From Vicinamibacterales bacterium (lineage in GTDB: Bacteria > Acidobacteriota > Vicinamibacteria > Vicinamibacterales > UBA2999), in the NCBI GenBank assembly GCA_050249615.1, contig JBFWQE010000013.1, positions 406-64,405 on the forward strand: 64,000 nucleotides of DNA, read 5' to 3'. This document shows, one piece after another, positions 15,841-37,171 of the stretch. How positions within the stretch are numbered: the first letter of the stretch is position 1; every line of letters begins with the position of its first letter. The notes beneath the pieces are model-generated. The model was not told the origin of the DNA. It ran no database searches and was given only the letters and a program-made list of their open reading frames with translations. Position numbers and translations under genes: made by a program.

Positions 15841-15923
15841 TGCCCTGCCCTCCTGGCTCCTGATCCCTGATCCCTGATCCCTGCCTTTCTGGACCCCCAC
15901 CCGTCCCCGCGGGGTCATACCAT

Positions 15924-20479: not shown

Positions 20480-20512
20480 GCTTTCCCCCGACTCCCAACT
20501 CCCGAAACGATC

Positions 20513-21547
20513 ATGAACATACTCACGATCGGCGCCGGCATCGCCGGGCTCACCGCGGCCAGGCGGCTGCAGGCGAACGGGCACACCCTCACGGTGCTCG
20601 ACAAGGGCCGCGCGCCGGGCGGCCGCATGTCCACACGGCGCGTGCTGAACGGCGATGCGGACCGTCCCGAGCTGGCCGAGCTTGCGTTCGACCACGGCGC
20701 GCAGTACTTCACGGTGCGCGACCCGCGTTTTGCGGGAGAGGTAGAGGGCTGGCACAAGGCACGAGTGGCGCAGTTGTGGCACGGCAAGCTGGCGGCGTTC
20801 GACAGCGAGGGACGTGAGCCGGTGGACGACGGCCAGGCCCGCTGGGTGGGCGTCCCTGGAATGAGCGCCGTCGCGCGTCACCTGGCCCGTGGCCTGGACG
20901 TCCTGTGCAATGCACGCGTCACGAGCCTGGAGCGCGATGCCGTGTCGGGCGCCGTCGCCTGGCACGCCTCACTGGCCGACCAGCGAGCCCTCGGCCCCTT
21001 CGATGCCGTTGTCGTGGCGCTGCCCGCGCCGCAGGCCCTGCCACTGCTGGCGGCGTCGCCGTCCCTCGCGCGCGAAGTGGGCGCGGTTCGCATGCACCCG
21101 TGCTGGGCGGTGATGGTGGCCTTCGACGATCGCGTGGCCACGCCCTTCGATGCCGCCTTCGTCACCTCGAGCCCGCTCGGCTGGCTGGCGCGGGACCGCT
21201 CGAAGCCGCAGCGCGGCCTGGCCGAGACCTGGGTGCTCCAGGCCAGCGCCGACTGGAGCGCCGCGCACGTGGACGACGACGCGGACGTCGTCGGGCCGTT
21301 CCTGTTGAATGCCTTTGCGGACCTCGTGCGGGCTCGACTGCCGCGGCCGGTGCATCTCGCCGCGCACCGGTGGCGGTATGCGTGCGGCCATCCGCCGGCC
21401 CATCACGGCGCGCTCGTCGATGCCGACCTGCGGCTGGCGGCCTGCGGCGACTGGTGCGCCGGCAATCGCGTCGAGGGGGCGTTCCTGAGCGGCATGGCCG
21501 CGGCGGATGCGCTGCTGGCGCAGCGCGAAGTGAGAAGCGAGAAGTGA
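20513..21547 (+). CDS. NAD/FAD-dependent oxidoreductase (renalase/amine-oxidase-like, COG3380-type)
   Basis: The N-terminal dinucleotide motif is MNILTIGAGIAGLTAARRLQANGHTLTVLDKGRAPGGRMSTRR. The C-terminus has GDWCAGNRVEGAFLSG. Confidence 0.8.
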   Translation: MNILTIGAGIAGLTAARRLQANGHTLTVLDKGRAPGGRMSTRRVLNGDADRPELAELAFDHGAQYFTVRDPRFAGEVEGWHKARVAQLWHGKLAAFDSEGREPVDDGQARWVGVPGMSAVARHLARGLDVLCNARVTSLERDAVSGAVAWHASLADQRALGPFDAVVVALPAPQALPLLAASPSLAREVGAVRMHPCWAVMVAFDDRVATPFDAAFVTSSPLGWLARDRSKPQRGLAETWVLQASADWSAAHVDDDADVVGPFLLNAFADLVRARLPRPVHLAAHRWRYACGHPPAHHGALVDADLRLAACGDWCAGNRVEGAFLSGMAAADALLAQREVRSEK

Positions 21548-21559
21548 GAAGTGAGAGCC

Positions 21560-22201: not shown

Positions 22202-22240
22202 GGGCCAGGGGGGTGGCTGGGAGAGATCTTAGCACTGGGC

Positions 22241-22437
22241 GTGGGCCTCGCTTCGCCCGGCTGGCGCTCCGCGTGGGCGGCGCTTCGCGCCGTGGGCGCT
22301 CCGCGTGGGGCGGGCCTTCGGCCCGTGGGCGGCGCTGACGCGCCGTCAGAACTCCCGCCGAGCGAAGCAGGGCCCCTACCGCGCCTCAGCGTGGCCTACC
22401 GCGCGTCAGCGCCCCTACCGCGCCTCAGCGCGGCCTA
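22241..22437. repeat. intergenic repeat block (GTGGGCGS-type units, then 3x ~19-nt unit CCTACCGCGCSTCAGCG)
   Basis: Units cccctaccgcgcctcagcgtgg / cctaccgcgcgtcagcg / cccctaccgcgcctcagcgcgg occupy 22373-22433. The next partial unit cctag supplies the recR stop codon. Confidence 0.75.
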
Positions 22438-23028
22438 GAGTTCCCGCCGCCCTTCCAGGGCGCGGGTCATCGTGAGGTCGTCGGCGTATTCGAGGTCGCT
22501 GCCCACGGGGATGCCCATGGCAATGCGCGTCACGCGCACGCCCAGCGGCTTGAGCAGCCGCGCCAGGTAGATGGCGGTGGCCTCGCCTTCGACCGTGGGG
22601 TTGGTCGCGAGGATGATCTCCTCGACGCCGCCGGCGCCGATGCGGCTCAGCAGGCCCTTGATCTTGAGATCGTCCGGCCCGATGCCCGCGAGCGGCGAGA
22701 TGGCGCCCATCAGCACGTGATAGGTGCCCCGGAAGCCGCCGGTCTTCTCCACCACGTTGACGGTCTGCGGCTCCTCCACCACGCAGATGCTCCGGCGGTC
22801 GCGCGACTCGTCCGCGCAGATGGGGCATGGATCCACGTCGGTGATGTTGCTGCAGATCGAGCAGTAGGTGACGCGATCCTTCACCTGGCGGATGGCATCG
22901 GACAGCCGCTCCGCCTCCTCGCGTGGCGTCCGCAGGATGTGGAACGCCAGCCGCTGCGCGCTCTTGCTGCCGATGCCGGGCAGGCGCTTGAACTGGTCGA
23001 TCAGGTGCTGGAGGGATTCGGGGAGCAC
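22435..23028 (-). CDS. recR: recombination protein RecR
   Basis: GTG start. It has [17 protein letters not shown] (HhH), the zinc finger [16 protein letters not shown] and a Toprim domain ([26 protein letters not shown]). Confidence 0.95.
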
Positions 23029-23035
23029 GGGGTCT

Positions 23036-23170
23036 GCGGTTCTCGGGTTCTCGGGTTCTCGGGTTCTCAGGTTCTCAAGTTCAGGGGTTCTCGGATTCTC
23101 AGGTTCTCAAGTTCAGGGGTTCTCGGGTTCTGAGGTTCTGAGGTTCTCGGGTTCGAGGTTCGCGGGTTCT
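23036..23170. repeat. tandem octamer array (GGTTCTCR)n, ~16 units
   Basis: ggttctcgggttctcgggttctcaggttctcaagttcaggggttctcggattctcaggttctcaagttcaggggttctcgggttctgaggttctgaggttctcgggttcgaggttcgcgggttct fills the whole ybaB-recR gap. Confidence 0.9.
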
Positions 23171-23467
23171 TCACAGGCCCGGGAGGCCGAGGCCGGTCAT
23201 CATGCCGCCCATCGTTCGCTTCAGCTCATCGTCCACTTTGCGGTGGGCGTCGTTCACGGCCGCGACGATCAGGTCCTGCAGCATGCCGACGTCGTCCTTC
23301 GACACCACCTCGGGGTCGAGACGGAGCGACAGCGGGTGCTTGTGGCCGTTGACCACCACGGTGACCATGCCGCCGCCGGATGTTGCCTCGACGCGCAGGT
23401 CGGTCATCTGCTGCTGCAGGCGCTGCTGCATCTCCTGCGCCTGCTTCATCATCGCCTGGATGTTCAT
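23171..23467 (-). CDS. ybaB: YbaB/EbfC nucleoid-associated protein
   Basis: ATG at 23467. The 98-aa product is MNIQAMMKQAQEMQQRLQQQMTDLRVEATSGGGMVTVVVNGHKHPLSLRLDPEVV...GLGLPGL, the textbook YbaB pattern. Confidence 0.9.
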   Translation of the reverse strand: MNIQAMMKQAQEMQQRLQQQMTDLRVEATSGGGMVTVVVNGHKHPLSLRLDPEVVSKDDVGMLQDLIVAAVNDAHRKVDDELKRTMGGMMTGLGLPGL

Positions 23468-23469
23468 CG

Positions 23470-23506
23470 CCCGACTCCCGGTTCCCGACTCCCGGTTCCC
23501 GACTCG
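23470..23506. repeat. tandem 14-mer (CGACTCCCGGTTCC)x2.5, GACTCCC family
   Basis: cccgactcccggttcccgactcccggttcccgactcgg fills the dnaX-ybaB gap. The gene strand reads (GGGAGTC) immediately upstream of the ybaB ATG. Confidence 0.85.
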
Positions 23507-23508
23507 GT

Positions 23509-25248
23509 CTACTCCCCCTGCACCGTTGTCTTCTCCACGGGGAAGACTTCGAGGAGGGTGCGCACGGTGTCGTGCTCGAGGGCGCTCTTCTGCCGATCGC
23601 CGGAGACCGGCGTGGCTCTGGGCGCCACCGGATCGGCCGGCGCGGGCGCCGGAGCATCCGAAGCATCGGTGAAGACGATCTGCACGGGCAGCCTGGCGCC
23701 GGCCACCTCGTCGACGATGCCCTGCAGCCACGCGCGGTTGTCCTCGCACTGGTTCTTCGGCACCTTCTGGTTCGGCTGGAACGCGAAGGTCACGCCCGCC
23801 GCATCCGCGTCGATGCGAAACGCCTGTGCCACGACTAGGTTGTAGAACGTGGGCTTGGCCGACTTGAGCCGGGCGAGCAGGGCATCGCGGTAGTCGCCCG
23901 CCGGGCGGGTGCCGGCACCTGTCGCGGGCGCCGCATCCTCTCGCGCCGGCACCGGGGCCGCTGGCCCGGGTGGCGGCACGCGTGACGGTCCCTGTGCTCC
24001 GGGAGCCCGGGAGGCCGGTGCCGCGGCGCGCGGGGCCGTGGGTCCCGATCTCGCCAAAGGCATCCGCGCCGATGGCGCGGCCGCTGGTGCCGGAGCGCTG
24101 AAGTTCCGTGCCGCGCCCGTCGCCCCCAGCAGCAGATCCGACAGCGGTGTGAGCTTGCGCAGGTGCATCAGCCTGAGCAGCGCCATCTCCATGTTGTAGC
24201 GCGGCTGATCCGATCCGCGGATCTCCTGCTCGGCCCGCGTCAGCAGATCGAAGCCGCGCAGCAGGTCCTCGCGCGACCAGCGGTCCACCAGCGCCAGGAG
24301 GCGATCGCGGTCACCGTCGCCGACGACATCGGGATCGGACGCGCGCGACTTGTCCACCGAGAGGACGAGCAGGTCGCGCATCGCGCGCGAGAGCTCGCGG
24401 CAGAGCAGCTTCAAGTCGTACCCGCGCTCGATGGCGCGCTCGGTGAGCGCGAAGGCCGCGGGCGCGTCCTCGGCCACCACCGCGTCGAGCATGTCGAGGA
24501 CGAGATCCCGGCCGACCAGGCCGAGCACGCTGACGACGTCCTCGGTGGTGATGGCGTCGCCGGCGAAGGCGCGCACCTGGTCGAAGGCGCTGAGCGAGTC
24601 GCGCATGCTGCCCTCGCCCGCCCGGGCCAGCAGCATCAGCGCCTCGTCCGGCGCCTGGATGTGCTCCTGGTCCGCGATGTAGCGCAGCCGCTCGGCCACC
24701 GTCTTCGCCGAGATCGTGCGGAACTCGTGCACCTGCGCGCGCGAGAGCACCGTGTCGGGGATCTTGTGCAGCTCGGTCGTCGCCATCATGAAGATGACGT
24801 GCGGCGGCGGCTCCTCGATGGACTTGAGCAGCGCATTGAACGACGAGGCCGACAGCATGTGGACCTCGTCGATGATGAAGACCTTGTAGCGGTTGCGGAC
24901 CGGGGCGATGGAGAGCCCCTCGATGATGACCTCGCGGACGTTGTCCACGCCGGTGTGGGTGGCGGCGTCAATCTCGAGGACGTCGATGTCGCGGCCCTCG
25001 GCAATCTCGATGCAGGGGTCGCATTCGCCGCACGGCTCGGCCGTGGGCCCCTTCACGCAGTTGAGGGCACGCGCCAGGATGCGCGCGCTGGTGGTCTTGC
25101 CGCACCCGCGCGGGCCCGCGAACACGAAGGCGTGGGCAATCCGCTTGCTCTTGAGCGCGTTCCGGAGCGTCTTCGTGACGGCCTGCTGGCCGAGCACGTC
25201 GTCGAACCGCTGGGGACGCCACTTGCGGGCGAGAACCTGGTAGGACAT
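23509..25248 (-). CDS. dnaX: DNA polymerase III subunits gamma/tau
   Basis: The start is MSYQVLARKWRPQRFDDVLGQQAV at ATG 25248. Walker A is GPRGCGKTT, followed by a zinc module CGECDPC and IIDEVHMLS. The ORF track extension to 25359 runs into a repeat array. Confidence 0.9.
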   Translation of the reverse strand: MSYQVLARKWRPQRFDDVLGQQAVTKTLRNALKSKRIAHAFVFAGPRGCGKTTSARILARALNCVKGPTAEPCGECDPCIEIAEGRDIDVLEIDAATHTGVDNVREVIIEGLSIAPVRNRYKVFIIDEVHMLSASSFNALLKSIEEPPPHVIFMMATTELHKIPDTVLSRAQVHEFRTISAKTVAERLRYIADQEHIQAPDEALMLLARAGEGSMRDSLSAFDQVRAFAGDAITTEDVVSVLGLVGRDLVLDMLDAVVAEDAPAAFALTERAIERGYDLKLLCRELSRAMRDLLVLSVDKSRASDPDVVGDGDRDRLLALVDRWSREDLLRGFDLLTRAEQEIRGSDQPRYNMEMALLRLMHLRKLTPLSDLLLGATGAARNFSAPAPAAAPSARMPLARSGPTAPRAAAPASRAPGAQGPSRVPPPGPAAPVPAREDAAPATGAGTRPAGDYRDALLARLKSAKPTFYNLVVAQAFRIDADAAGVTFAFQPNQKVPKNQCEDNRAWLQGIVDEVAGARLPVQIVFTDASDAPAPAPADPVAPRATPVSGDRQKSALEHDTVRTLLEVFPVEKTTVQGE

Positions 25249-25262
25249 GAACGGCGGGCTGA

Positions 25263-25313
25263 AGGTTCTGAGGTTCTGAGGTTCCGGGGTTCTGGAGTCC
25301 TGGGGTTCTCGGG
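25263..25313. repeat. tandem octamer array (GGTTCTGR/GGTTCTCG), same family as 23036-23170
   Basis: aggttctgaggttctgaggttccggggttctggagtcctggggttctcggg lies 15 nt upstream of the dnaX start. Confidence 0.85.
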
Positions 25314-25321
25314 CTGCCCTA

Positions 25322-25445
25322 CGGGCCGGACCGCGGTCCGGGATGGCTGCACACATCACGGAAACGACTTAGCGCTGCTGCCTTCCGGCCCTGACGCGGT
25401 TCGCCGCCCTGAGATTGCACAGGTCCCGGGCCGCGGTGCGGCCCG
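25322..25445 (-). ncRNA. ffs: signal recognition particle RNA (small 4.5S-type)
   Basis: The minus strand contains CCGCGUCAGGGCCGGAAGGCAGCAGCG, matching the conserved domain IV motif (E. coli 4.5S has GGUCAGGUCCGGAAGGAAGCAGCC). The terminal helix pairs CGGGCCGCACCGCGG (25445-25431) with CCGCGGUCCGGCCCG (25336-25322). Its position directly upstream of dnaX is the common ffs-dnaX-ybaB-recR synteny. Confidence 0.8.
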
Positions 25446-25627
25446 CCACCGGGACACAGACGTGGCCGCCCGGTGAAGGAACGTAACGCCAGTCTAGCAT
25501 CCCCGGGCGCTGGTTGCAGCCGCAGATGCCGCAGATGGCCCGGAAGCCACAGACAGCGGATTTCTGGGGTTCGCGGCAGCCAACTCGCGCAGGCGGCAGG
25601 GCGCGAGAGCCGCGTCACCAGCCGTGA

Positions 25628-25777
25628 TCTGCCTTGCCTGCCTTGCCTGCCTTCTCTACCTTGTCTGCCTTGTCTACCTTGTCTGCCTTGTCTGCGCCAT
25701 CTGCGCCATCTGCGTCATCTGCGTCATCTGCGTCCACCATCTGCGTTCATCTGCGTTCATCTGCGTCATCTGCGTCC
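25628..25777. repeat. compound tandem array: (CTGCCTTG/TCTACCTTG)n then (CATCTGCGY)n
   Basis: tctgccttgcctgccttgcctgcc...ttgtctgccttgtctgcgccatctgcgccatctgcgtcatctgcgtcatctgcgtcc...catctgcgtcatctgcgtcc. The last units encode the final Arg-Arg-stop of the M20 gene. Confidence 0.9.
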
Positions 25778-26770
25778 CATCAGCGTCGCCGCCAGGCGCT
25801 CGTACAGCGTGACGGCCTCCAGCAGCTCGTCCACCTTGATGTGCTCGTGGTCGGTGTGTGCGACGTGGATGGAGCCTGGACCGAGCAGGAACGGCGTGCC
25901 CCAGTTCGACAGCAGCGGGATGTCGGTGGTGTAGGCGAACACGGCCGTGTCGAATCCCTCGCGCGTCTCCAGGTGGACCGGGGGCACTTCGAGCACTTCC
26001 ACGATCTCCGCGCGATCCCCGACCGTTGCTGCCAGCACGGAGCGGATGTCGTCGTGCGGTCCCACGCTCCGGAAGATGATCTCCGCCTCGGCGTGCGCCG
26101 GCACCACGTTGGGCGCCACGCCCCCCGAGATGAGCCCCACCGTATAGCTGGTGCGCCCCAGCAGCGGGTCGTCCGGCCAGGGCGCCGCGCGCAGCGCGAC
26201 GAGGACGTCCACCAGCGCCTCGATGGCCGATCGGCCGAGCGCCGGGTAGCCCGAGTGCGCCGCGACGCCTGTCGTGACCAGCTTCACGCGGAACACGCCC
26301 CGCGTCGCGGAGCCCAGGCGATTGTCAGTGGGCTCGCCGTTGATCAGGAAGCCGGATCGCGACGCGATGCGGTTCGCTGCCAGCGCCCCTTCGCTCCCGC
26401 GCTCCTCTCCCGCGACGAACACGAGGCCGACGCGCGTCTCGCCCGCGGCGCGCAGCCGCTCGGCCGCCGCCACCTGTGCCGCGAGGATGCCCTTCGCGTC
26501 GCAGGCGCCGCGACCGTACAGCAGGCCGTCCTCGAGCCGGCTGGGGAAGAACGGCGGCACGCAGTCGATGTGGGTGGAGAACACCAGGCTCGGCTCGCCC
26601 ACGGCCGCGATGACGTTGATGCGGTCCTCGACGACGGGCTGCTCGAGGACGGAGTAGCCGCGGTCGCGCAGGTACGCGGCCAGCACCCGGGCAGCCTCGC
26701 CCTCACGCCCGGTGGTGGAGTCGATGTCGATGAGCCGTCGCGCCAGCGCGATCGGGTCTACCGGATCCAC
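25766..26770 (-). CDS. M20 family metallopeptidase, probable succinyl-diaminopimelate desuccinylase (DapE/ArgE family)
   Basis: The likely GTG start at 26770 (VDPVDPIALARRLIDIDS) overlaps the dapD end. Motifs: STHIDCVP, GRGACDAKG, VAGEERGSEG and AHSGYP. Context is the DAP operon. Confidence 0.75.
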   Translation of the reverse strand: MDPVDPIALARRLIDIDSTTGREGEAARVLAAYLRDRGYSVLEQPVVEDRINVIAAVGEPSLVFSTHIDCVPPFFPSRLEDGLLYGRGACDAKGILAAQVAAAERLRAAGETRVGLVFVAGEERGSEGALAANRIASRSGFLINGEPTDNRLGSATRGVFRVKLVTTGVAAHSGYPALGRSAIEALVDVLVALRAAPWPDDPLLGRTSYTVGLISGGVAPNVVPAHAEAEIIFRSVGPHDDIRSVLAATVGDRAEIVEVLEVPPVHLETREGFDTAVFAYTTDIPLLSNWGTPFLLGPGSIHVAHTDHEHIKVDELLEAVTLYERLAATLMGRR

Positions 26771-27585
26771 GTCTCGAGCTCCGTGCGCGTGTCGGTGCGA
26801 TCGTCCCGGTACTTGACGATGACGGGGGTCGCCAGCGACAGTCCCCAGTCCGCGCCGGCGCCCACCTTGACGGATCGCGCGCCCGGCACGACCACGGCGC
26901 CCTCGGGAATCACGAGCGGCTGCCCCGGCTCGGGGCGGATGATGCGGCCGTTGGGCAGGTCGTACACCGGGGTGGAGCCGGTGAGCACGGTGCCCGCCGC
27001 GATGACCGCTCGTCGCCTCACGACGGCGCCCTCGTAGATGCCCGTGTTGCCGCCCACCAGCACGTCGTCCTCGATGATGACGGGCATGGCGCCGACCGGC
27101 TCGATGACGCCGCCAATCTGCGCCGCGGCGCTCACGTGCACCCGCGCGCCGACCTGCGCGCACGACCCGACCAGGGCGTGCGAGTCGACGAGCGTGCCCT
27201 CGCCCACGTAGGCGCCGATGTTGACGTACATCGGAGGCATGCAGATGACCCCCTTCGCCAGGAATGCGCCCTCGCGCACGCTCGACCCGCCGGGCACGAT
27301 GCGGATGCCCGCCGCGGTTCCCGGCCGCTTGAGCGGCATCGTGTCCTTGTCGTAGAACGGCAGCCCCTCGCTCATGTCCACGAGGTCGCCGAACCTGAAG
27401 CCGAGCAGGATGCCCTGCTTCACCCAGGCGTTGACGCGCCACCCGGTCGGCTCGGCGGGGTCGGGCTCCGCGGCCCGCACTGCCCCGGCGCTCAGCGCCT
27501 GCCGCAACGCCGAGAACGCCTCGCGCGCCGCGCCCTTATCTGCCGCGGCGCCCGCCGCGAACAACTCTTCGATTCGCTCTCTCAC
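26758..27585 (-). CDS. dapD: 2,3,4,5-tetrahydropyridine-2,6-dicarboxylate N-succinyltransferase
   Basis: GTG start at 27585. Hexapeptide-repeat region IGAYVGEGTLVDSHALVGSCAQVGARVHVSAAAQIGGVIEP...IIEDDVLVGGNTGIYEGAVV, plus the N-terminal WRVNAWVKQGILLGFR. Confidence 0.9.
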   Translation of the reverse strand: MRERIEELFAAGAAADKGAAREAFSALRQALSAGAVRAAEPDPAEPTGWRVNAWVKQGILLGFRFGDLVDMSEGLPFYDKDTMPLKRPGTAAGIRIVPGGSSVREGAFLAKGVICMPPMYVNIGAYVGEGTLVDSHALVGSCAQVGARVHVSAAAQIGGVIEPVGAMPVIIEDDVLVGGNTGIYEGAVVRRRAVIAAGTVLTGSTPVYDLPNGRIIRPEPGQPLVIPEGAVVVPGARSVKVGAGADWGLSLATPVIVKYRDDRTDTRTELETWIR

Positions 27586-27610
27586 ACTGAATGCCCTTTC
27601 GACGCCGATG

Positions 27611-27666
27611 CGACGCAGATGACGCAGATAACGCAGATAACGCAGATGACGCAGATGACGCAGATT
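27611..27666. repeat. tandem nonamer array (CGCAGATRA)x6
   Basis: cgacgcagatgacgcagataacgcagataacgcagatgacgcagatgacgcagat lies 25 nt upstream of the dapD start. It is the reverse complement of the array at 27892-27917. Confidence 0.9.
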
Positions 27667-27891
27667 TCACGGGTTCCGGCGGTTTGCTGAACACAGTCGG
27701 GCAGACGGTGCCGGACGGCAGAGCCGCCGGCCGGGAGATGTCGAGGCCGGGATGAGCGCCGCCTGACGGGATTGCGCGCCCGCGCGAGCGTTCATCCCGA
27801 CCTCGACGTCTTCCGGCACGTGGCGCGAACGCGCGCCACGGCCGTCTGCCCGACGGTCAACCTGGGGCCCACACGCCAGCCAATCCTGCTT

Positions 27892-27917
27892 CATCTGCGC
27901 CATCTGCGCCATCTGCG
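27892..27917. repeat. tandem nonamer array (CATCTGCGC)x3
   Basis: catctgcgccatctgcgccatctgcgg abuts the dapA stop codon at 27920-27922. Confidence 0.85.
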
Positions 27918-27919
27918 GC

Positions 27920-28822
27920 TCAACTCCGCGTCATCCCCGCCGCGATCCCCGCCTCGGCCAGCGCCGCGAGGATCTTCTCCTTCGACGCCGGTCGCGGCGG
28001 CACCATCGGCAGGCGGTAGACCTCCTCGCACAGTCCCATCGCCGCCATCGCGAACTTCACGGGGCCGGGGTTCGACTCCACGAAGTTGACGAGCAGCAGC
28101 GGCAACAGCCTGTGGTGCATCTCACGCGCCGCGAGATAGTCCCCGCGCTCCGCGGCCTCGACCATCCGTGCCATCTCGGCGGGAATCTCGTTCGACGCCA
28201 CCGAAATGATCCCTCGTCCGCCAATGGCCATCAGCGGAATCGTGATCGCATCGTCTCCCGAGAGCACGCGAAAATCCGGCGGGACCGCACGGAGGATCTC
28301 GGCCATCTGCTGGATGTTGCCGGAAGCCTCCTTGACGCCGACGATGCGGGGAATCGTGGCGAGGCGGGCCACGGTGGACGCATCCATGTTGCAGCCGGTG
28401 CGGCCCGGCACGTTGTAGAGCACGATCGGCAGCGGCGTGGCCTCCGCCACCGCCGAGAAGTGCCGGAAGAGCCCTTCGGGCGTGGGCTTGTTGTAGTACG
28501 GCGTCACCGAGAGCAGCCCGTCGGCGCCGGCCTTCTCCATCTCCCGTGCCGCGTGGACCACCTCTTTCGTGTCGTAGCCGCCTGCACCGGCCATCACCGG
28601 CACGCGGCCGGCGGCTTCCTCCACGACCAGCTCCACGACGCGCCGCTTCTCCGCGTCCGACAGCGTGGGGGTCTCTCCAGTGGTGCCACACGGCACCAGG
28701 AAGTGCACGCCGGCCTCGATCTGCCGGCGCGCCAGGCGCCGGACACCGGCCTCGTCCAGCTCACCGCTCTTCGTGAAGGGCGTGATCAACGCCGTCCCGA
28801 CACCGGTCCACATCTCGCGCAT
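27920..28822 (-). CDS. dapA: 4-hydroxy-tetrahydrodipicolinate synthase
   Basis: The start is MREMWTGVGTALITPF at ATG 28822, with a GAGGAA RBS. Motifs: LVPCGTTGETPTLS, YNVPGRTG, and VGVKEASG containing the Schiff-base Lys. Confidence 0.9.
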   Translation of the reverse strand: MREMWTGVGTALITPFTKSGELDEAGVRRLARRQIEAGVHFLVPCGTTGETPTLSDAEKRRVVELVVEEAAGRVPVMAGAGGYDTKEVVHAAREMEKAGADGLLSVTPYYNKPTPEGLFRHFSAVAEATPLPIVLYNVPGRTGCNMDASTVARLATIPRIVGVKEASGNIQQMAEILRAVPPDFRVLSGDDAITIPLMAIGGRGIISVASNEIPAEMARMVEAAERGDYLAAREMHHRLLPLLLVNFVESNPGPVKFAMAAMGLCEEVYRLPMVPPRPASKEKILAALAEAGIAAGMTRS

Positions 28823-28837
28823 AGGGCAGTTCCTCGG

Positions 28838-28897
28838 TCTTGGGGCTTGGGGCTTGGGGCTTGGGGCTTGGGTCGTGAGGTCTTGAGGTCTTGAGGG
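28838..28897. repeat. (GGGGCTT)x5 heptad array followed by (GAGGTCTT)x2.5
   Basis: cttggggcttggggcttggggcttggggcttgggtcgtgaggtcttgaggtcttgaggg begins 16 nt upstream of the dapA ATG. Confidence 0.9.
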
Positions 28898-28904
28898 TGG
28901 GGGG

Positions 28905-29012
28905 CAATCGCTCAATCACCCAATCGCTCAATCCGCCAATCCTGAAATGCCCCAATCACTCAATCACAAATCACCCGATGAATCGTCAATCATCAATCCG
29001 CAATCACTCAAT
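28905..29012. repeat. degenerate tandem array of CAATCRCT/CAATCA units
   Basis: caatcgctcaatcacccaatcgctcaatccgccaatcctgaaatgccccaatcactcaatcacaaatcacccgatgaatcgtcaatcatcaatccgcaatcactcaatgg overlaps the dapB stop. Confidence 0.8.
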
Positions 29013-29699
29013 GGACGGCCGCAGCACGTCAACCATCCCGTACCACCCCCTCCGCCCCACCAGCCAGCGTGCGGCGACCAGCGCGCCGCGGGCGAAGACG
29101 GCGCGGTCCCGCACGGTGTGCGTGAGCTCGATGGTCTCCGAAGGACCGTCGAAGCCCACCGCGTGCGTCCCGGGAATGGACCCGGCCCGCGTGGACGACA
29201 CGTCGATGGCCCGATCGAAGCCCGCCTGCTCCATCCCGGCCTTCAGCGTGAGCGCGGTCCCCGACGGCGCGTCCTTCTTCCTGTCGTGATGCGCCTCGTG
29301 AATCCACGCGCCGAAGTCGTGCTGCGGGGCGAAGAGGCGCGCCGCCTCCGACACGACCAGCTGGAAGAGGTTCATCCCGAGGGAGAAGTTCGAGGCGGAG
29401 ACGACGCCGATGCCGGCGTCCGCCACGAGCCGGCGCAGGGCCGCTTCGTCGGCCTGCCATCCCGTCGTCCCGATGACCACGTTGATGCCGCGCGCCGCCA
29501 GCGCGGGCAGGGTCTTCGGAACGGCTTCGGCCAGCGTGAAGTCGATGGCCACGTCCACGTGGCCGAAGACGCCGTCGGCGATGGCCCGGTGTCCGTTCTG
29601 CGTGGTGACGACGCCCGCCACGTCGAAGCCGTAGGCGCCGGCGAGAGACGCGACGAGCGAACCCATGCGGCCGTGCCCGACGATCAGCAGCTGCGGCAT
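29004..29699 (-). CDS. dapB: 4-hydroxy-tetrahydrodipicolinate reductase
   Basis: 231 aa. MPQLLIVGHGRMGSLV (NAD site), VIGTTGW, and EAHHDRKKDAPSGTAL (the E-x-HHxxKxDAPSGTA signature). Confidence 0.9.
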   Translation of the reverse strand: MPQLLIVGHGRMGSLVASLAGAYGFDVAGVVTTQNGHRAIADGVFGHVDVAIDFTLAEAVPKTLPALAARGINVVIGTTGWQADEAALRRLVADAGIGVVSASNFSLGMNLFQLVVSEAARLFAPQHDFGAWIHEAHHDRKKDAPSGTALTLKAGMEQAGFDRAIDVSSTRAGSIPGTHAVGFDGPSETIELTHTVRDRAVFARGALVAARWLVGRRGWYGMVDVLRPSIE

Positions 29700-29705
29700 C
29701 GCGGG

Positions 29706-31124
29706 TCAGCCCCGGGTCCCGGCCACCGAGGCCGAGACCGGATACGGCGCGAAGAAGGTGTCGTGCAGGCGGCTGAGCGCCGTCGCCACGTCGCGCTCGC
29801 GGATCACGAAGGTGATGTTCCGCCGCCCGGCGGCCTGCGACACCATGCGCAGCGGCACGTCGCCCACCGCCGCCAGCACCCGTGCCGCCATCGCCGGATC
29901 CCGCTCCAGGCCGTCCCCCACGGCGCAGACGATGGCCATCTGGCCCTCGCACGACACCTCGGCGAAACTCGAGAGCTCCTCGACGACCGCGGGCAGGCGC
30001 CGCGCGTCGTCCACGGTCACCGACACGCTCACCTCCGAGGTCGTGACCACGTCCACCGGCGTCTTGTAGCGATCGAACACCGAGAACAGCCGGCTCAGGA
30101 ACCCGTGCGCCATCAGCATGCGCGTGGAGGTGATATCCACGACGGTGACGCCCTTCTTCGCCGCCACGGCCGTCAGCGGGCGCTCGCTCACCGGCCTCTC
30201 GGCCGTGATGAGCGTGCCGCGCGCGTTGGCGCGCCGCGAATTCAGGATGCGTACCGGGATGTTGCGCGCGACGGCCGGCTGGATGGTGGCGGGGTGCAGC
30301 ACCTTCGCGCCGAAGTACGCCAGCTCCGACGCTTCGGCAAACGAGATGTGCGGCACGACCTGCGGCTCGTCCACGATGCGGGGGTCCGAGGTGAGCATGC
30401 CGTCCACGTCGGTCCAGATCTGGATCTCGCCCACACCGAGGCACGAGCCCACGATGGCGGCCGAGTAGTCCGAGCCGCCGCGCCCCAGCGTCGTCGTGAC
30501 GCCCTCGCGCGTGGCGCCCACGAACCCGCCGAGCACGGGAATGCGGTGCGCAGCCAGCACTGGATCCACGTGGATCATCAACGCCGCGGTGGTCTCGGGG
30601 AACTGCGGCGCCGCGGCCTGGTGCTCGCCGTCGGTGACCACGGCCAGGCGCGAGTCCACCCACGCGGCAGGCAGTCCCCGTGCGTTCAGCGCCGCGGCCA
30701 CGATCCGGCTACTGAGGATCTCACCCGCGGCGGCAATCGTGTCCATCCACCGCGGCGACACCTCCCGCAGCACGCCAAGGGCCGCGACCACGCGCTCCAG
30801 CTCCGCGAACTCGGCCGCGAGCTCGCCGCGCAGCACGGTCTCGAGCGCATCGTCGGTCACCACTTCCGACACCATGACGTGCCGCTGGTGCAGATCCCGC
30901 AGGCTGGCGATCGCGCCATCGATGTCCCCGGCGCCGGCCTGCGCAGCCACGCCCAGCAACCGATCGGTCACGCCCGACAGCGCCGACACCACCACGATGG
31001 GCCCGCGCGCGTCGCCGCCTTCCTGCTGCGCGTCGGCCTGCCGCTGCGCCCGCACGATGGCCATCAACCGCTCGATGGCCGCGCTGTCTGCCACCGAGGT
31101 TCCGCCGAACTTCATTACGACCAT
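29706..31124 (-). CDS. lysC: aspartate kinase
   Basis: MVVMKFGGTSVADSAAIERL, GRGGSDYSAA, and two C-terminal ACT-like regions (MAIVCAVGDGL...). Confidence 0.9.
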   Translation of the reverse strand: MVVMKFGGTSVADSAAIERLMAIVRAQRQADAQQEGGDARGPIVVVSALSGVTDRLLGVAAQAGAGDIDGAIASLRDLHQRHVMVSEVVTDDALETVLRGELAAEFAELERVVAALGVLREVSPRWMDTIAAAGEILSSRIVAAALNARGLPAAWVDSRLAVVTDGEHQAAAPQFPETTAALMIHVDPVLAAHRIPVLGGFVGATREGVTTTLGRGGSDYSAAIVGSCLGVGEIQIWTDVDGMLTSDPRIVDEPQVVPHISFAEASELAYFGAKVLHPATIQPAVARNIPVRILNSRRANARGTLITAERPVSERPLTAVAAKKGVTVVDITSTRMLMAHGFLSRLFSVFDRYKTPVDVVTTSEVSVSVTVDDARRLPAVVEELSSFAEVSCEGQMAIVCAVGDGLERDPAMAARVLAAVGDVPLRMVSQAAGRRNITFVIRERDVATALSRLHDTFFAPYPVSASVAGTRG

Positions 31125-31142
31125 GACAACTCCGATGGATCC

Positions 31143-31210
31143 TGGGGCTTGGGGCTTGGGGCTTGGGGCGTGCGCCGAATCCCTTCACTCCGACTCCCGG
31201 CTCCCGACTC
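31143..31210. repeat. (GGGGCTT)x4 heptad array plus GACTCCC-family repeat
   Basis: tggggcttggggcttggggcttggggcg (31143-31170) starts 19 nt upstream of the lysC ATG. cactccgactcccggctcccgactc follows at 31186-31210. Confidence 0.9.
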
Positions 31211-31224
31211 AATTCACTCCCGTC

Positions 31225-32265
31225 TCAACTCAGCAACCCTTGCGCGTGCATCAGCTCCGCGTTGAGGATGGCCGCCCCGGCGGCGCCCCGCACGGTGTTG
31301 TGGCCCAGGGCCACGAAGCGCGTGTGCAGCACGGGACACGGTCGAACGCGGCCGACGCTCACCGCCATGCCGCCGCCGAGGTCGGCATCGAGCCGCGGCT
31401 GCGGGCGGTTCGGCTCGTCCATCACCACGATGGCCGGCTGCGGCGCGCTGGGCAGGCCAAGCTCCTGCGGCCGCCCCTTGAAGGCACGCATGGCTGCCAG
31501 CACAAGTTCGGGTGAGGGCTTCTCGCCAAGGTCCACCGACACCGTCATGGTATGGCCGTCGATGACGGGCACGCGATTGGTATGCGCGCTCACGACCGCG
31601 GCCAGCGGAACGCGCCCGCCGTCGCTGCCGAGAATCTTCAGGGTCTCGGTCTCCATCTTCTCCTCTTCACCGCCGATGTACGGGACGACGTTGCCGAGGA
31701 TATCCAGCGATGGCACGCCCGGGTACCCGGCCCCGGACACCGCCTGCATCGTCGAGACGACCACGCTCCGGATGTCGAAGAGTCGGAGCGGCGCCAGGGC
31801 CATGGCCAGCACGATGGTCGAGCAGTTCGGGTTGGTGACGATCGCGCCCGTCCAGGCCTTCGCGGCACGCTGCTCGGGCAGCACCTGCAGGTGCTCCGCG
31901 TTCACCTCGGGGATGAGCAGCGGCACCAGCGGGTCCATCCGGTAGTTGCGCGCATTGCTGACGACGATGTGTCCCGCGGCGGCAAAGGCGCCTTCGATCT
32001 CACCCGCCACCCCGGCGTCCAGTCCGGAGAAGACGACCCTCGGCCCCCGGCCCGGCGTGCAGGACTCGACCAGGCGGCTCGCCGAGGCCTCGGGAATCGG
32101 CGTGGAGAGACGCCATGGCGCCACGGCTTTGTACGACTTGCCCTCGGAGCGCTCGCTGGCGGCCAGCCAGGTGAGGTTGAACCACGGATGCCGCGCGAGG
32201 CGGGACACGAACTGCTGCCCGACCATCCCCGTAGCCCCGAGCACGCCGACGTCGATCCTCTCCAC
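31225..32265 (-). CDS. asd: aspartate-semialdehyde dehydrogenase
   Basis: GTG at 32265 lies 5 nt after GGGAGG; the ORF track maximum is 32301. Motifs: VGVLGATGMVGQQFV, VTNPNCSTIVLAMAL (active-site Cys) and VDGHTMTVSV. Confidence 0.9.
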   Translation of the reverse strand: MERIDVGVLGATGMVGQQFVSRLARHPWFNLTWLAASERSEGKSYKAVAPWRLSTPIPEASASRLVESCTPGRGPRVVFSGLDAGVAGEIEGAFAAAGHIVVSNARNYRMDPLVPLLIPEVNAEHLQVLPEQRAAKAWTGAIVTNPNCSTIVLAMALAPLRLFDIRSVVVSTMQAVSGAGYPGVPSLDILGNVVPYIGGEEEKMETETLKILGSDGGRVPLAAVVSAHTNRVPVIDGHTMTVSVDLGEKPSPELVLAAMRAFKGRPQELGLPSAPQPAIVVMDEPNRPQPRLDADLGGGMAVSVGRVRPCPVLHTRFVALGHNTVRGAAGAAILNAELMHAQGLLS

Positions 32266-32276
32266 GTGTTCCTCCC

Positions 32277-32315
32277 GAAAACAAAAAACCCGCCTGGGCA
32301 TCTGCCGCGGCGGGT
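32277..32315 (-). terminator. intrinsic terminator-like hairpin + U-tract inside the asd 5' leader (attenuator / expression platform)
   Basis: The minus strand reads ACCCGCC-GCGGCAGAUGCCCA-GGCGGGU UUUUUUGUUUU, directly followed by GGGAGG AACAC GUG (asd). No upstream minus-strand gene exists that it could terminate. Confidence 0.6.
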
Positions 32316-32464
32316 AGCTGTGGCCCAGACAAGGGGCCGAATCGATGTTCCTACTCTATGGAGTAGACCACTGATCCACGCATCCCGGCGCATGGCACGC
32401 CCGCTTTCGCGTGCTGCACTTTCGGGTGTGGATGGCGGTGGTCACGGATGGGAGTATAGCACGG

Positions 32465-32578
32465 GGTCCTGGGGTTCTCGGGTTCTCGGGTTCTCGGGTT
32501 CTCGGGTTCTCGGGTTCTCGGGTTCTCGAGTTCTCGGGTTCTCGGGTTCTCGGGTTCGGGGGTTCGGGGGGTTGGGGC
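32465..32578. repeat. tandem octamer array (GGTTCTCG)x~13, decaying into GGTTCGGGG units
   Basis: ggtcctggggttctcgggttctcgggttctcgggttctcgggttctcgggttctcgagttctcgggttctcgggttctcgggttcgggggttcggggggttggggc sits in the divergent asd / 32634 gap. Confidence 0.9.
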
Positions 32579-32633
32579 GGTCGCGGGATGAGCGTGGGAT
32601 ACTGAGGTCGGTCCTCGCTGTCCGCCGGAACCC

Positions 32634-35914: not shown

Positions 35915-35955
35915 ACGGAGAGATGTCCGAGTGGTTGAAGGAGCACGCTTGGAAA
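35915..35955 (+). repeat. attL: 41-bp direct repeat = orphan 5' half of tRNA-Ser(GGA)
   Basis: ACGGAGAGATGTCCGAGTGGTTGAAGGAGCACGCTTGGAAA is identical to 50907-50947. Identity ends at the last base of the anticodon loop. Confidence 0.85.
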
Positions 35956-37066: not shown

Positions 37067-37171
37067 GAGCGGGTTCCGGGCGTGTCGTTGGGAGGGTGAG
37101 CGGTCTTCCGCGCTACCGCCAGATCCTTGTGAAACGCCTTGGACGGCGGATTGACGACCAACGGCGGCCAA

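Follow-up and report, generated by a model that had tools for sequence, protein, structure and literature searches.

Short tandem repeats with units of about 7 nt arranged head to tail are known from cyanobacteria, both as STRR arrays (canonical units CCCCAGT, TTGGTCA and CAACAGT) and as the GGGGAYT, TTTTGAA and GACYAAT arrays of Nostoc. These heptamers are mostly intergenic and lie near start codons or gene ends, and what has been learned of their function amounts to hints that they may influence expression (PMC4692102; bioRxiv 10.1101/2022.06.06.494920). The arrays described here, found in a 64-kb stretch of DNA from a soil bacterium of the Vicinamibacterales (hereafter the window), are a new example of this known, poorly understood kind of bacterial repeat and not a new system. 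As in the cyanobacteria, few families per genome occur at many loci, some arrays form inverted pairs, and plasmids or foreign DNA lack them. However, our host belongs to the Acidobacteriota, with 70% GC and no canonical STRR sequence among its units. In addition, heptamers are no more common in it than units of 8, 9 and 10 nt, and local density is extreme, with arrays making up half of the gap bases.

Two other heptamer systems are similar in part. The (GGGAATC)n/(GGGANTN)n repeats of Xanthomonas are about 90% intergenic and lie nearer the end of the upstream ORF (Rehm et al. 2015, PMC4692102). Family C of the window (GGGAGTC) fits the GGGANTN pattern, and neither set is linked to particular gene functions. 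Yet one dominant family forms G-quadruplexes in vitro in Xanthomonas, whereas at least six families coexist here, most of which (A, D and the CAATCRCT array) cannot form them. In marine Beggiatoaceae, the unit TAACTGA carries stop codons in all forward frames and is also present in some Cyanobacteria and Bacteroidetes; horizontal spread of this unit and a putative role in translation have been proposed (MacGregor 2015, PMC4679880). Abundant intergenic heptamers upstream of unrelated genes, and occasional arrays at protein termini, are features of both Beggiatoaceae and our genome, but there a single unit is involved, while here each lineage has units of its own, which change between close relatives.

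The arrays also resemble LSSR and VNTR loci in having units of at least 5 nt, a heptamer excess in non-coding DNA and whole-unit copy-number polymorphism between strains. Phase-variable contingency loci differ: from within a reading frame or promoter spacer, they turn surface or virulence genes on and off. The arrays described here occupy intercistronic spacers of housekeeping operons, with no switch evident. Finally, tandem direct repeats that evolve fast and have independent origins are similarly pervasive in archaeal Borgs (PMC9879509). Borg in-gene repeats make disordered segments, comparable to the proline-rich (10221–10309) and Gly/Ser/Glu-rich (61492–61546) linkers of the window. Borg repeats, though, are a mark of an extrachromosomal element whose host has virtually none, while ours characterize the host chromosome and are missing from an acquired island.

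Array content and placement in the window

TRF recovered 27 merged arrays totaling 1,547 bp, whereas 20 dinucleotide-preserving shuffles yielded 1.35 arrays (47 bp) on average. Nearly all arrays claimed in the earlier note are among them. Two of its family C arrays were only partly upheld: the one at 16.6 kb has only 2.3 tandem units plus one beyond a palindromic insert, and the 2.7 units at 20.5 kb fall under the TRF threshold. Units are mostly 7–10 nt long and head to tail, and families A (GGTTCTCG), B (GGGGCTT), C (GACTCCC) and D (CGCAGATGA or its complement) recur at three, three, five and four non-homologous loci, respectively (Table 1). Similarly, AAGGCAG recurs four times in a more distant relative (L214). 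Regular-expression matches to families A–D number 0, 0, 0 and 1 in 1.33 Mb of bacterial loci from outside the Vicinamibacterales and 40 arrays in 115 kb of Vicinamibacterales loci.

The gaps that host arrays belong to housekeeping operons (dnaX-ybaB-recR, asd-lysC-dapBA and dapD-M20). In the core at 13.4–33.3 kb, only one of the 12 gaps that measure 20 nt or more is free of arrays; the other 11 have one. Arrays make up 1,053 of 2,018 gap bases (52%) and 629 of 17,940 genic bases (3.5%). The claim that nearly every core gap is filled therefore stands for 13.4–32.6 kb; it fails for 1–13 kb, where TRF found no array in the gaps of host DNA, and for 33.4–50.7 kb, where it found none either. The low-GC island at 36–51 kb has zero arrays by TRF, as the earlier note had said in arguing for a host trait. 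This absence is weak evidence alone, because the host stretch at 1–13 kb is also array-free in its gaps, but orthologous gaps in five independent assemblies of relatives carry arrays, which bears out a trait of the host lineage.

Table 1. Positions of short-unit arrays in the window. Singleton, outside families A–D.
Positions	Strand	Array	Context	Basis
10221..10309	-	GCACCC family, in-frame coding; units alternate 7/8 nt (15-nt period)	GAF-Hpt-receiver protein gene; encodes proline-rich linker (APVHPAPLHP...)	
15859..15883	+	Singleton, (CCTGATC)x3.6	Sulfatase->ABC ATPase gap	TRF, gap census
16596..16662	+	Family C, ACTCCCG x2.3, 40-nt palindromic insert, one unit	Encodes variable ABC ATPase C-terminal tail (protein 245-260 aa among relatives)	
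19333..19387	+	Singleton, (GGGTGCGGGC)x4.9, GCACCC family	FtsX->AttH gap; relatives have (CGCACCCCTC)n or (TGCACCCT)n instead	TRF
20485..20503	+	Family C, 2.7 units (GACTCCC / AACTCCC)	33-nt AttH->amine oxidase gap	Direct reading
21522..21556	+	(GAAGTGA)x4.3	Spans amine oxidase gene 3' end and stop codon	
22239..22346	-	GC-rich, 16/32-nt units of small GAA-loop hairpins	Upstream of TM198 promoter-like TGCTAAGAT motif; gap only 77 nt in relatives with DnaX 85% identical	
22368..22437	-	Singleton, three copies of 19-20-nt hairpin unit (TAGG-CCGCGC-TGAG-GCGCGG)	recR stop in first copy; single copy in L084	TRF
23036..23170	-	Family A, (GAGAACCC/CAGAACCY)x17 in mRNA sense	Fills ybaB->recR gap, from ybaB stop to 8 nt short of recR start; TRF bounds 23038-23170	TRF
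23470..23505	-	Family C, (GGGAGTCGGGAACC)x2.6 in mRNA sense	Fills dnaX->ybaB gap; supplies GGGAG Shine-Dalgarno-like motif upstream of ybaB	TRF
25263..25313	-	Family A	Between SRP RNA gene (ffs) and dnaX start	TRF
25519..25537	-	Two inverse family D units (CATCTGCGG in mRNA sense)	Just upstream of ffs promoter-like TGCTAGACT motif; distal partner of D array 25691-25787	
25623..25695	-	(CAAGGCAGA)x7.6 nonamers in mRNA sense	Unit core AAGGCAG is dominant heptamer of L214	TRF
25691..25787	-	Family D nonamers, (ACGCAGATG)n in mRNA sense	Starts at M20 peptidase stop	TRF
27586..27919	-	Two inverted family D arrays (27600-27665, 27892-27917)	dapA->dapD gap	TRF, fold, relatives
28839..28872	-	Family B, (AAGCCCC)x5 in mRNA sense	Ends 14 nt before dapA start	TRF
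28905..29012	-	Singleton, CAATCRCT-type units (AGYGATTG in mRNA sense)	Begins within dapB stop codon	TRF
31143..31169	-	Family B, (AAGCCCC)x4	Upstream of lysC	TRF
31175..31232	-	Family C-type units (GGGAGTC / GACGGGAGTGAAT)	Immediately 3' of asd stop codon	TRF
32464..32581	-	Family A, (CGAGAACC)x13 in asd sense	Between divergent asd and Gly_transporter genes; ends ~8 nt before conserved asd-leader GTGCTATACT motif	TRF
54723..54749	+	Singleton, (ACACGAAGG)x3	Encodes ATP-grasp protein C-terminal tail	TRF
57190..57300	+	Family D, (GCCGCAGATGG / ACGCAGATG)n, 111 nt	Fills gap from unannotated ORF to ATP-dependent DNA ligase gene	TRF
61492..61546	-	Family C units	Within ABC-F ATPase gene; encodes linker part (..GSRESGV..GESGVGSR..) between second ABC domain and C-terminal domain	TRF, direct reading
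63204..63228	-	Family B, (AAGCCCC)x3.6	17 nt upstream of ABC-F ATPase start	TRF

As proposed earlier, arrays start where a gene ends: nine of ten begin 0–6 nt after the stop codon. Arrays often hold the stop codon itself (recR TAG, M20 TGA, dapB TGA) or extend into C-terminal tails (ABC ATPase, ATP-grasp protein), as also claimed. They end 3–22 nt before the next start or right before conserved TGCTA(T/G/A)... motifs (asd, ffs, TM198). In the array-bearing part of this genome, arrays have expanded to cover almost all the sequence from a stop codon to the functional signal that follows. Such a signal can be the SRP RNA gene, a leader, a TGCTAnnnT promoter-like motif or a ribosome-binding region of 10–20 nt. 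Coding arrays lie in linkers and keep the reading frame in all cases found.

All six A and B arrays adjoin minus-strand genes. In family C the absolute strand is constant and the orientation relative to genes varies, so that mRNAs of plus-strand genes (16.6 and 20.5 kb) read GACTCCC and those of minus-strand genes GGGAGTC. In the dapA->dapD gap, the two D arrays pair and close a hairpin of about 290 nt around a palindromic core (27666–27891), with a predicted fold of −209.2 kcal/mol (z −10.4).

Positional conservation, turnover and dispensability among relatives

Relatives with DnaX 85–93% identical carry the same family at the same gap in different copy number, and in a relative with DnaX 75% identical the same gaps hold arrays of other units. 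Across relatives, the ybaB->recR gap measures 145, 56, 32, 106, 67 and 54 nt, and its units change from GAGAACCC to CAGAACCC to AAGGCAG to a decayed remnant. Judged from this gap, length and sequence appear to be without constraint. A further relative, L215 (DnaX 74% identical, GC 0.70), has the same gene order and compact gaps of 1–54 nt, and it retains both the promoter-like motif and the asd leader. Its syntenic gaps contain no short-unit arrays, and it has almost none overall. The trait is therefore not universal in Vicinamibacterales, even at the same GC content, and the arrays are dispensable.

Comparing array lengths between strains, as the earlier note had suggested, bears out differences in copy number: in near-identical strain pairs, all five indels lie inside arrays and four of them are whole units. 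The window and a contig of the same species (L081) differ by 23 substitutions and 3 indels over 19,153 bp, all three being whole units within arrays (7, 7 and 8 nt). Compared to this sister strain, the window is one octamer longer in the ffs-dnaX family A array, one unit shorter in the dapA family B array, and has four units instead of five in the lysC family B array. L084 and L085 have 0 substitutions over 21,345 bp and a single indel, a 7-nt unit. Between L084 and L086, the ffs->dnaX array holds 7 of 10 substitutions and the sole indel, whose 4 nt do not amount to a full unit. An array-free relative shows 2 substitutions and 0 indels over 61 kb of pairwise alignment. What the strain comparison shows is copy-number polymorphism, and not phase variation in the sense of expression switching.

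Arrays are distributed phylum-wide. Acidobacteriota loci contain 99 arrays in 628 kb and loci from other phyla 17 in 700 kb, a density about 6.5 times higher, and 87% of the census arrays have a period of 7 or 14. The ffs->dnaX gap bears arrays in ten species spanning three classes, with units that are mostly species-specific and a few common to 2–3 loci.

Possible explanations for the arrays

We favor, with moderate confidence, the view that these are slippage-driven, lineage-specific long-unit simple sequence repeats of 7–10-nt units, of the VNTR/LSSR type, the first description of which was the STRR of cyanobacteria. Such arrays would lengthen, shorten and give way to others through changes in the DNA itself, wherever the sequence is free of selection. 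The likely processes would be replication slippage and, for the inverted pairs, template switching. In E. coli, loops from units of at least 7 nt are too large for MutS-type mismatch repair; because unit loops would escape this repair, arrays could be mutational hot spots, and escape may let them persist. The position of an array may last long while copy number, unit variant and finally unit family turn over. From the sequence patterns, we read effects on expression as mostly incidental and the arrays as probably near-neutral: they donate stop codons and GGGAG ribosome-binding motifs, add junk C-terminal tails or in-frame disordered linkers, and give rise to C-rich unstructured leaders (A, B) and long hairpins (D).

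Some observations speak against slippage as the full account. Arrays persist at the same gap over deep divergence, and selection could maintain the one between ffs and dnaX. Unconstrained DNA is not uniformly filled, given the array-free host gaps at 1–13 kb. Moreover, family B is significantly biased in orientation, and A/B RNA is unstructured in the sense orientation only. At 95 independent metagenomic loci, B occurs 48 times in sense and 20 times in antisense (p = 0.0009); the single fixed A/B orientation proposed earlier thus survives for B as a bias and not as a strict rule. B is the only family with a tested transcription-linked orientation bias. Sense A/B RNA folds far less than background (z +3.9 for 23036–23170, +5.0 for 32464–32581 and +2.8 for 28839–28872), while antisense RNA folds like it.

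It is tempting to see in families A and B functional RNA spacers that serve as ribosome standby or landing sites, or as Rho loading (rut) sites setting operon polarity, although we consider this unlikely. Sense A/B RNA would stay single-stranded in a 70% GC transcript because it is C/A-rich and G-poor (C 36–55%, G 15–22%). Arrays end 8–19 nt before starts, and recR and dnaX have no recognizable Shine-Dalgarno motif; genes where this motif is weak or absent (recR, dnaX, ABC-F) would be the targets, which we likewise doubt. Nostoc heptamer arrays near start codons changed reporter expression (bioRxiv 10.1101/2022.06.06.494920). However, L215 manages without arrays, length is free at the ybaB->recR gap (32–145 nt), and the more distant relative has purine-rich AAGGCAG units there. 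In sense, families C and D and the 28905–29012 array have a G-rich or balanced composition. Forty co-directional arrays from other Acidobacteriota show no sense-strand bias of C over G, and one A array, situated 5' of a promoter-like motif, might go untranscribed in the A sense.

The recurrence of few families at non-homologous loci is not explained by independent local slippage by itself, and hints that units spread from one locus to another or that certain motifs are selected. Dispersal by MITE- or REP-like elements or by inter-locus gene conversion would account for few families per genome, and one unit does occur at 3–5 unrelated loci per genome, with a family set that varies between genomes. 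Inverted pairs, not expected from simple slippage, point the same way: there are 16 in other Acidobacteriota, where about one third of arrays form perfect hairpins. A 227-nt palindromic core is present in the window, L082 and L083 and missing from the same gap in L084 and L085; the inverted D arrays that flank it could then be terminal inverted repeats of a palindromic element, an idea in which we put little faith. We hold dispersal itself to be quite improbable, since the D-flanked core is single-copy in all sequence compared, the three B loci have no flanking homology, no transposase or RAYT-like gene was seen beside the arrays and no target-site duplications are evident. Units are also often like the unique sequence beside them: the AGACCCC that precedes the recR start is similar to AGAACCCC, and in L083 a 16-mer upstream of asd is GAACCC fused with the promoter-proximal CCGTGCT. 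This likeness suggests that arrays originate in situ.

Action at the DNA level, whether a regulator or nucleoid protein binds the tandem units or G-quadruplex tracts modulate transcription or replication, strikes us as very unlikely. The repeats that family C matches form G-quadruplexes in vitro in Xanthomonas (PMC4692102), the complement of family B has 4–5 G4 tracts, its orientation bias puts the G-rich strand on the template, and arrays abut promoter-like motifs. The candidate G-quadruplex tracts would be, in B, the (GGGGCTT)n of the template strand and, in C, (GGGAGTC)n; A and D have no G-tract. Presence, unit sequence and copy number are all unconserved, no candidate binding protein was found, and tandem sites would not share one helix face because periods of 7–9 nt mismatch the DNA helical repeat. 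Lastly, the arrays are almost certainly not assembly or polishing artefacts of metagenome-assembled genomes: single-unit differences could reflect collapsed or expanded repeats, and the long-read assembly of one relative (L213) is rich in frameshifts, but a short read is long enough to span most arrays, independent assemblies of different samples from NCBI, JGI and ENA (contigs of 1.36 and 4.6 Mb included) have the same arrays in the same gaps, and ordered internal variants are reproduced exactly between assemblies.

Tandem arrays in the core spacers

The gene map was drawn from Pfam, Rfam and public gene calls, with coding limits taken from the calls mapped from L081, a contig of a sister strain of the same species. 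Six-frame tblastn against close relatives left coding boundaries undefined, all frames matching at 85–95% identity. TRF run over the whole window placed arrays at essentially all coordinates where the earlier note had listed them, singletons included, with periods of 7–10 nt (plus composites of 14–20 nt) and 3–17 copies. After merging, 27 arrays cover 1,547 bp, whereas 20 dinucleotide-preserving shuffles of the window averaged 1.35 arrays spanning 47 bp. The arrays are therefore real, and far beyond chance.

Four unit families recur. Only B and C are heptameric; the unit of A has eight nucleotides and that of D nine. The unit sequences named for this genome are GAGAACCC, AAGCCCC, GGGAGTC and ACGCAGATG. 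A regular-expression count gave 40 arrays of families A–D in 115 kb of close relatives; among other bacteria, 1.33 Mb of loci yielded 0, 0, 0 and 1 arrays of A, B, C and D. Genome-wide dispersal was sampled over the 64-kb window and loci of about 20 kb. Rfam returned no family matching any array, even at E ≤ 1.

Coordinates of arrays, genes and other features (positions in the window unless another locus is named).
Feature	Positions	Strand	Remark
Family A, GGTTCTCG	23038-23170, 25263-25313, 32464-32581	plus (unit as written)	TRF
Family B, GGGGCTT	28839-28872, 31143-31169, 63204-63228		TRF
Family C, GACTCCC	23470-23505, 31175-31232, 61492-61546		TRF
Family C, weaker runs	16596-16662, 20485-20503
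Family D, CGCAGATGA or complement	25691-25787, 27600-27665, 27892-27917, 57190-57300		TRF
In-gene array, GAF-Hpt-receiver protein	10221-10309	minus
In-gene array, ABC-F ATPase	61492-61546	minus	GGGAGTC units
Window/L081 indel, AAGCCCC unit	31142
Window/L081 indel, AAGCCCC unit	28838
Window/L081 indel, octamer	25263-25270
Sulfatase, ABC ATPase, FtsX permease, AttH lipocalin, amine oxidase	13.4-21.5 kb	plus
TM198, recR, ybaB, dnaX, SRP RNA gene ffs, M20 peptidase, dapD, dapA, dapB, lysC, asd	21.6-32.3 kb	minus
Gly_transporter gene	past 32.3 kb	plus
TGC-TAnnnT motif before asd	32453-32462	minus
TGC-TAnnnT motif before ffs	about 25455-25465	minus
TGC-TAnnnT motif before TM198	about 22225-22235	minus
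asd leader (about 190 nt)	32266-32462	minus
dapA-to-dapD gap, predicted hairpin	27586-27919	minus
Further hairpin units	22368-22437
Array of 16-nt unit, upstream of asd	L083, about 2700-2890
tRNA-spacer arrays, examples	L009, 7981-8374; L027, 7415-7852
Low-GC island	about 35900-50900
tRNA-Ser at island end	50909-50998
UvrD-like helicase	37172-39088		in island
OLD-family ATPase/TOPRIM nuclease	39085-40998		in island
AbiEii-type nucleotidyltransferase	40995-41615		in island
Schlafen/AlbA_2 protein with winged-helix domains	42225-43931		in island
ATP-dependent DNA ligase	57316-58401	plus
LigD primase-polymerase	58346-59746	minus

Within the core (13.4–33.3 kb), TRF found an array in 11 of the 12 gaps that are 20 nt or longer, and the remaining gap holds 2.7 family C units. 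Arrays occupy 52% of gap bases there (1,053 of 2,018) versus 3.5% of genic bases (629 of 17,940). The description in the earlier note of nearly every gap being filled thus stands for the core but was too broad for the window, since TRF found no arrays in the gaps at 1–13 kb or anywhere in the stretch 33.4–50.7 kb, the low-GC defence island included. Its account of placement was largely right: arrays begin 0–6 nt past the stop codon in nine of ten cases, and those after recR (TAG), M20 (TGA) and dapB (TGA) supply the stop codon within their first unit. At the other end, arrays stop 3–22 nt short of the next start or directly before three short motifs kept in all relatives, upstream of asd, ffs and TM198. 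In each gap, the part free of repeats roughly matches the needs of a stop codon, ribosome-binding site, promoter, leader or RNA gene.

Two arrays within genes belong to the intergenic repeat families, in frame-preserving form. One has a period of 15 nt (7+8) and codes for a proline-rich APVHPAPLHP-type linker of a GAF-Hpt-receiver protein; the other encodes a Gly/Ser/Glu-rich linker of an ABC-F ATPase.

In public gene calls, starts and ends differ among the window and three of its relatives (L082, L083 and L085) where arrays adjoin genes, and annotated lengths vary (asd 346 or 389 aa; dapD 275, 283, 298 or 302 aa; ABC ATPase 245–260 aa). Because stop codons are absent from some frames of the arrays, automatic gene callers are misled, which leaves ORFs that are too long and spurious N- or C-terminal extensions in public annotations of asd, dapD and the ABC ATPase.

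Copy-number change and family turnover among relatives

The DnaX of the window is 100% identical to that of the Vicinamibacterales (Acidobacteriota) metagenome-assembled genome GCA_050184095.1. We compared orthologous 20-kb loci from other assemblies, ranked by DnaX identity: L082 (93%), L083 (88%), L084, L085 and L086 (85%, three different samples), L213 and L214 (75%), and L215–L219 (74%, five samples).

Between the window and L081 there are 23 substitutions and three indels in 19,153 bp, and all three indels are whole units in arrays. One CAAGCCC unit is the sole difference between L084 and L085 over 21,345 bp. Ten substitutions separate L084 from L086, and seven fall in the array between ffs and dnaX; the single indel between the two, of 4 nt and so not a whole unit, is in the same array. 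In these near-identical pairs, then, four of five indels are whole units (7, 7, 8 and 7 nt) and the fifth also lies within an array. The array-free species shows two substitutions and no indels over 61 kb of pairwise alignment among five samples. Any single unit change between assemblies could still be an assembly error; the arrays, including the internal order of their variants, are reproduced across independent NCBI, JGI and ENA assemblies. Arrays are the fastest-changing sites between strains, largely as expected from the proposal that their copy number varies, and they are usable as VNTR markers for typing strains of uncultured Vicinamibacterales.

At 85–93% DnaX identity, a gap keeps its family while its length and unit variant change. 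The ybaB-to-recR gap measures 145, 56, 32 and 106 nt, with units GAGAACCC or CAGAACCC, and the dapB-to-dapA gap 181, 299, 102 and 95 nt, with units AAGCCCC or CAAGACCC; the dapA-to-dapD and M20-to-ffs gaps have a variable core between inverted D arrays. In L214, arrays persist in the ybaB-to-recR, dnaX-to-ybaB and FtsX-to-AttH gaps, and the dominant unit is AAGGCAG, at four loci in 21 kb. L215 shares with the window its gene order, a GC content of 0.70, and the promoter-like motif and leader of asd. Its gaps are compact (42, 5, 34, 15, 1, 54 and 59 nt). They lack short-unit arrays, and between ybaB and recR a decayed A-like remnant, GAACCCGAGAACGCCCAAACCCGACAACCCC, is all that is left. This gap-by-gap comparison indicates that the arrays are old at their positions, free to vary in both length and sequence, and dispensable: position is retained while the unit family turns over. 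The recurrence of the same families at the same gaps also largely upholds the view that they are a trait of the host genome. The presence in a single order of relatives with and without arrays, at equal GC, offers a natural experiment on the drivers of long-unit repeat blooms, one that could reveal polymerase or repair differences and any effect of arrays on operon expression.

Upstream of asd in L083 lies an array of a 16-nt unit, CCGTGCTTTGAACCCT, in which the family A core GAACCC is fused to CCGTGCT, the unique sequence ahead of the −10-like motif. The array seems to capture a unit boundary in the course of being shifted through duplication of flanking sequence. In L213 (ENA ERZ25039597 contig_399, 1.36 Mb) the orthologous dap and lysC genes are split into many short ORFs, most likely by uncorrected long-read indel errors, and its array lengths are therefore not trustworthy.

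Across phyla, we compared the first 80 dnaX loci fetched. The 37 from Acidobacteriota (Blastocatellia, Pyrinomonadaceae, Terriglobia and others; 628 kb) contain 99 arrays, 87% of them with a period of 7 or 14, and the 43 from other phyla (700 kb) contain 17. The short ffs-to-dnaX gap has one or two arrays in ten of the species compared, with units that are mostly species-distinct and a few common to two or three loci. Mutually reverse-complementary neighbours form 16 adjacent pairs, or 32 of 104 arrays, with loops of 5–49 nt; no adjacent pair among the 104 is in the same sense. In four loci from Blastocatellia and Pyrinomonadaceae (L005, L009, L027 and L053), heptamer arrays fill tRNA–tRNA and tRNA–SRP RNA spacers, so that arrays are not confined to gaps between protein genes. 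We found no description of arrays of this type in Acidobacteria or Vicinamibacteria, in a literature search whose coverage mostly excluded subscription journals. Our observations extend intergenic arrays of the STRR type (short tandemly repeated repetitive heptamers, from cyanobacteria) and LSSR type (long simple sequence repeats) to Acidobacteriota, a soil phylum that ranks among the most abundant and the least studied.

Orientation, predicted folds and upstream motifs

In the sense of their flanking genes, A and B arrays are C/A-rich and G-poor. Their sense RNA folds far less than background (z +3.9, +5.0 and +2.8), and their complements fold at background level. Set against a Rho utilisation (rut) site, a C-rich, G-poor and unstructured RNA of about 70 nt or more, A arrays fit, spanning 121–142 nt with 36–45% C, 21–22% G and z of +3.9 to +5.0; B arrays reach only 25–35 nt, and the other families do not fit.

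Searching public metagenomes for (AAGCCCC)3 gave at least 120 stretches. We scored orientation in contigs with a GC content of at least 0.60, where 99 arrays among the matches listed form 95 independent flank clusters. Called by codon periodicity, AAGCCCC is in the mRNA sense at 48 loci and antisense at 20 (p = 0.0009, among the matches listed). This bias held after de-duplication; with a crude ORF caller it was not significant. B orientation is thus biased about 2.4:1, and the claim that it is fixed relative to the downstream gene was overstated as a rule. Independent A, C and D arrays, expected at the metagenomic B loci, were not found; (AAGCCCC)n is widespread, and the other three families are particular to this lineage. 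Scanning viral contigs for family A gave six matches of mixed GC content.

A general rule that arrays are G-poor on the sense strand is rejected by C, D and the array at 28905-29012, which are G-rich or balanced in sense, and by 40 co-directional arrays of other Acidobacteriota, which show no sense-strand G/C bias. We consider it improbable that the arrays are a lineage-wide system for punctuating polycistronic RNA in Acidobacteriota. In such a system, C-rich sense A and B arrays would be docking spacers for ribosomal protein S1, Rho or another RNA-binding protein. The inverted pairs, represented here by family D and in Blastocatellia by a third of the arrays, would act as programmable hairpins that direct termination or RNase processing between cistrons, tRNAs and SRP RNA. 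A trans-acting factor would co-evolve with the unit families, and this would explain why each genome has few families at many loci.

For the dapA-to-dapD gap the predicted fold is one long hairpin, roughly 290 nt in length (−209 kcal/mol, z −10.4), whose base stem is the two inverted D arrays, a larger-scale version of the inverted-pair design seen in other Acidobacteriota. The design is kept with a different core in L082 and L083 and is absent in L084 and L085. The hairpin may serve as a terminator or an RNase III site, or it may be the relic of a palindromic insertion.

The motifs at which arrays end before asd (GTGCTATACT), ffs (ATGCTAGACT) and TM198 (GTGCTAAGAT) share a TGC-TAnnnT pattern, are kept in every relative and have no recognisable −35 element. 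These three hand-read motifs look like extended −10 promoters. A sigma-70 consensus scan of 21.5–33 kb returned no sites, and the exact pattern GTGCTANANT matches the asd site alone.

The leader upstream of asd-lysC-dapB-dapA starts at the asd motif and closes, shortly before the ribosome-binding site of asd, with a strong hairpin and then TTTTTTGTTTT. Relatives down to 74% DnaX identity keep this leader, the array-free one included. No Rfam family matched it even at E ≤ 1, the lysine riboswitch included, and RNAalifold found only three compensatory pairs among five sequences. We regard it as a candidate for a new riboswitch or attenuator of the lysine/aspartate pathway.

Repeat class and origin

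The arrays belong to the LSSR/VNTR class (long simple sequence repeats of variable copy number), and every defining feature that we tested is present: units of about 5–11 nt repeated head to tail in at least three copies, far in excess of what composition would give, a preference for non-coding DNA (52% versus 3.5%), and whole-unit copy polymorphism among close strains (four of five indels). The closest described systems are cyanobacterial STRR, the Nostoc heptamers, the Xanthomonas GGGAATC/GGGANTN repeats, the Beggiatoaceae TAACTGA heptamers (PMC4679880) and LSSR generally. The Xanthomonas repeats are about 90% intergenic, lie near the upstream ORF and occupy the same gaps across related species at varying lengths (PMC4692102). 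Family C, as GGGAGTC, fits GGGANTN in sequence pattern, the B complement GGGGCTT mismatches the Nostoc GGGGAYT at position 5, and A, D and the other arrays fit neither. What stands out here is how dense the arrays are, how cleanly their hypermutability shows, and that a single order contrasts relatives rich in arrays with relatives free of them.

Other known systems fit less well. Canonical cyanobacterial STRR is excluded by the differing units and the Vicinamibacterales host. CRISPR arrays are ruled out by contiguous, spacer-free units of 7–20 nt, and no cas genes occur among the annotated neighbours. Phase-variable contingency loci are ruled out as well: the arrays lie after stops or upstream of ribosome-binding or promoter-like signals and offer no frame or promoter-spacer switch, the coding arrays preserving frame with their 15-nt period and the flanking genes being housekeeping genes.

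The best-supported account, and one that we think reasonably probable, is mutational: slippage-driven repeats in unconstrained spacer. Long-unit tandem repeats would start from local sequence, since units resemble adjoining unique bases, as in the L083 16-mer. They would then grow and shrink through replication slippage; loops of at least 7 nt lie outside the range of MutS repair in E. coli. Arrays would be limited wherever purifying selection protects a stop codon, ribosome-binding site, promoter or RNA gene, only frame-compatible versions would survive in genes, and inverted pairs may arise by template switching in quasi-palindromes. Apart from the array-free host gaps at 1–13 kb, arrays fill all unconstrained spacer DNA.

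The mutational account leaves unexplained the reuse of a few families at unrelated loci, the recurrence of ffs-to-dnaX arrays in three classes, the B orientation bias and the array-free host gaps, and we therefore keep three rivals. One is a DNA-level model. Another is dispersal of the repeats, which in its MITE form is opposed by the D-flanked hairpin core: no second copy occurs in the window or in any locus searched, and on present data this also argues against a REP/BIME/MITE-type element. The remaining one, functional RNA spacers, is contradicted as a general rule by family C, which holds its absolute strand across the gene-strand switch at 21.5 kb, by the C, D and 28905-29012 arrays, which are G-rich or balanced in sense, and by the purine-rich AAGGCAG of L214 in the gap where the window carries A.

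The array-free island has a GC content of 61–65%, ends at a tRNA-Ser gene and carries defence genes; several neighbouring ORFs have no Pfam matches. Its OLD-family nuclease and the adjoining UvrD-like helicase make up a Gabija-like pair. Further along, an ATP-dependent DNA ligase gene converges on one for a LigD primase-polymerase, and the pair amounts to a split LigD-type end-joining module. A 111-nt family D array precedes the ligase gene.
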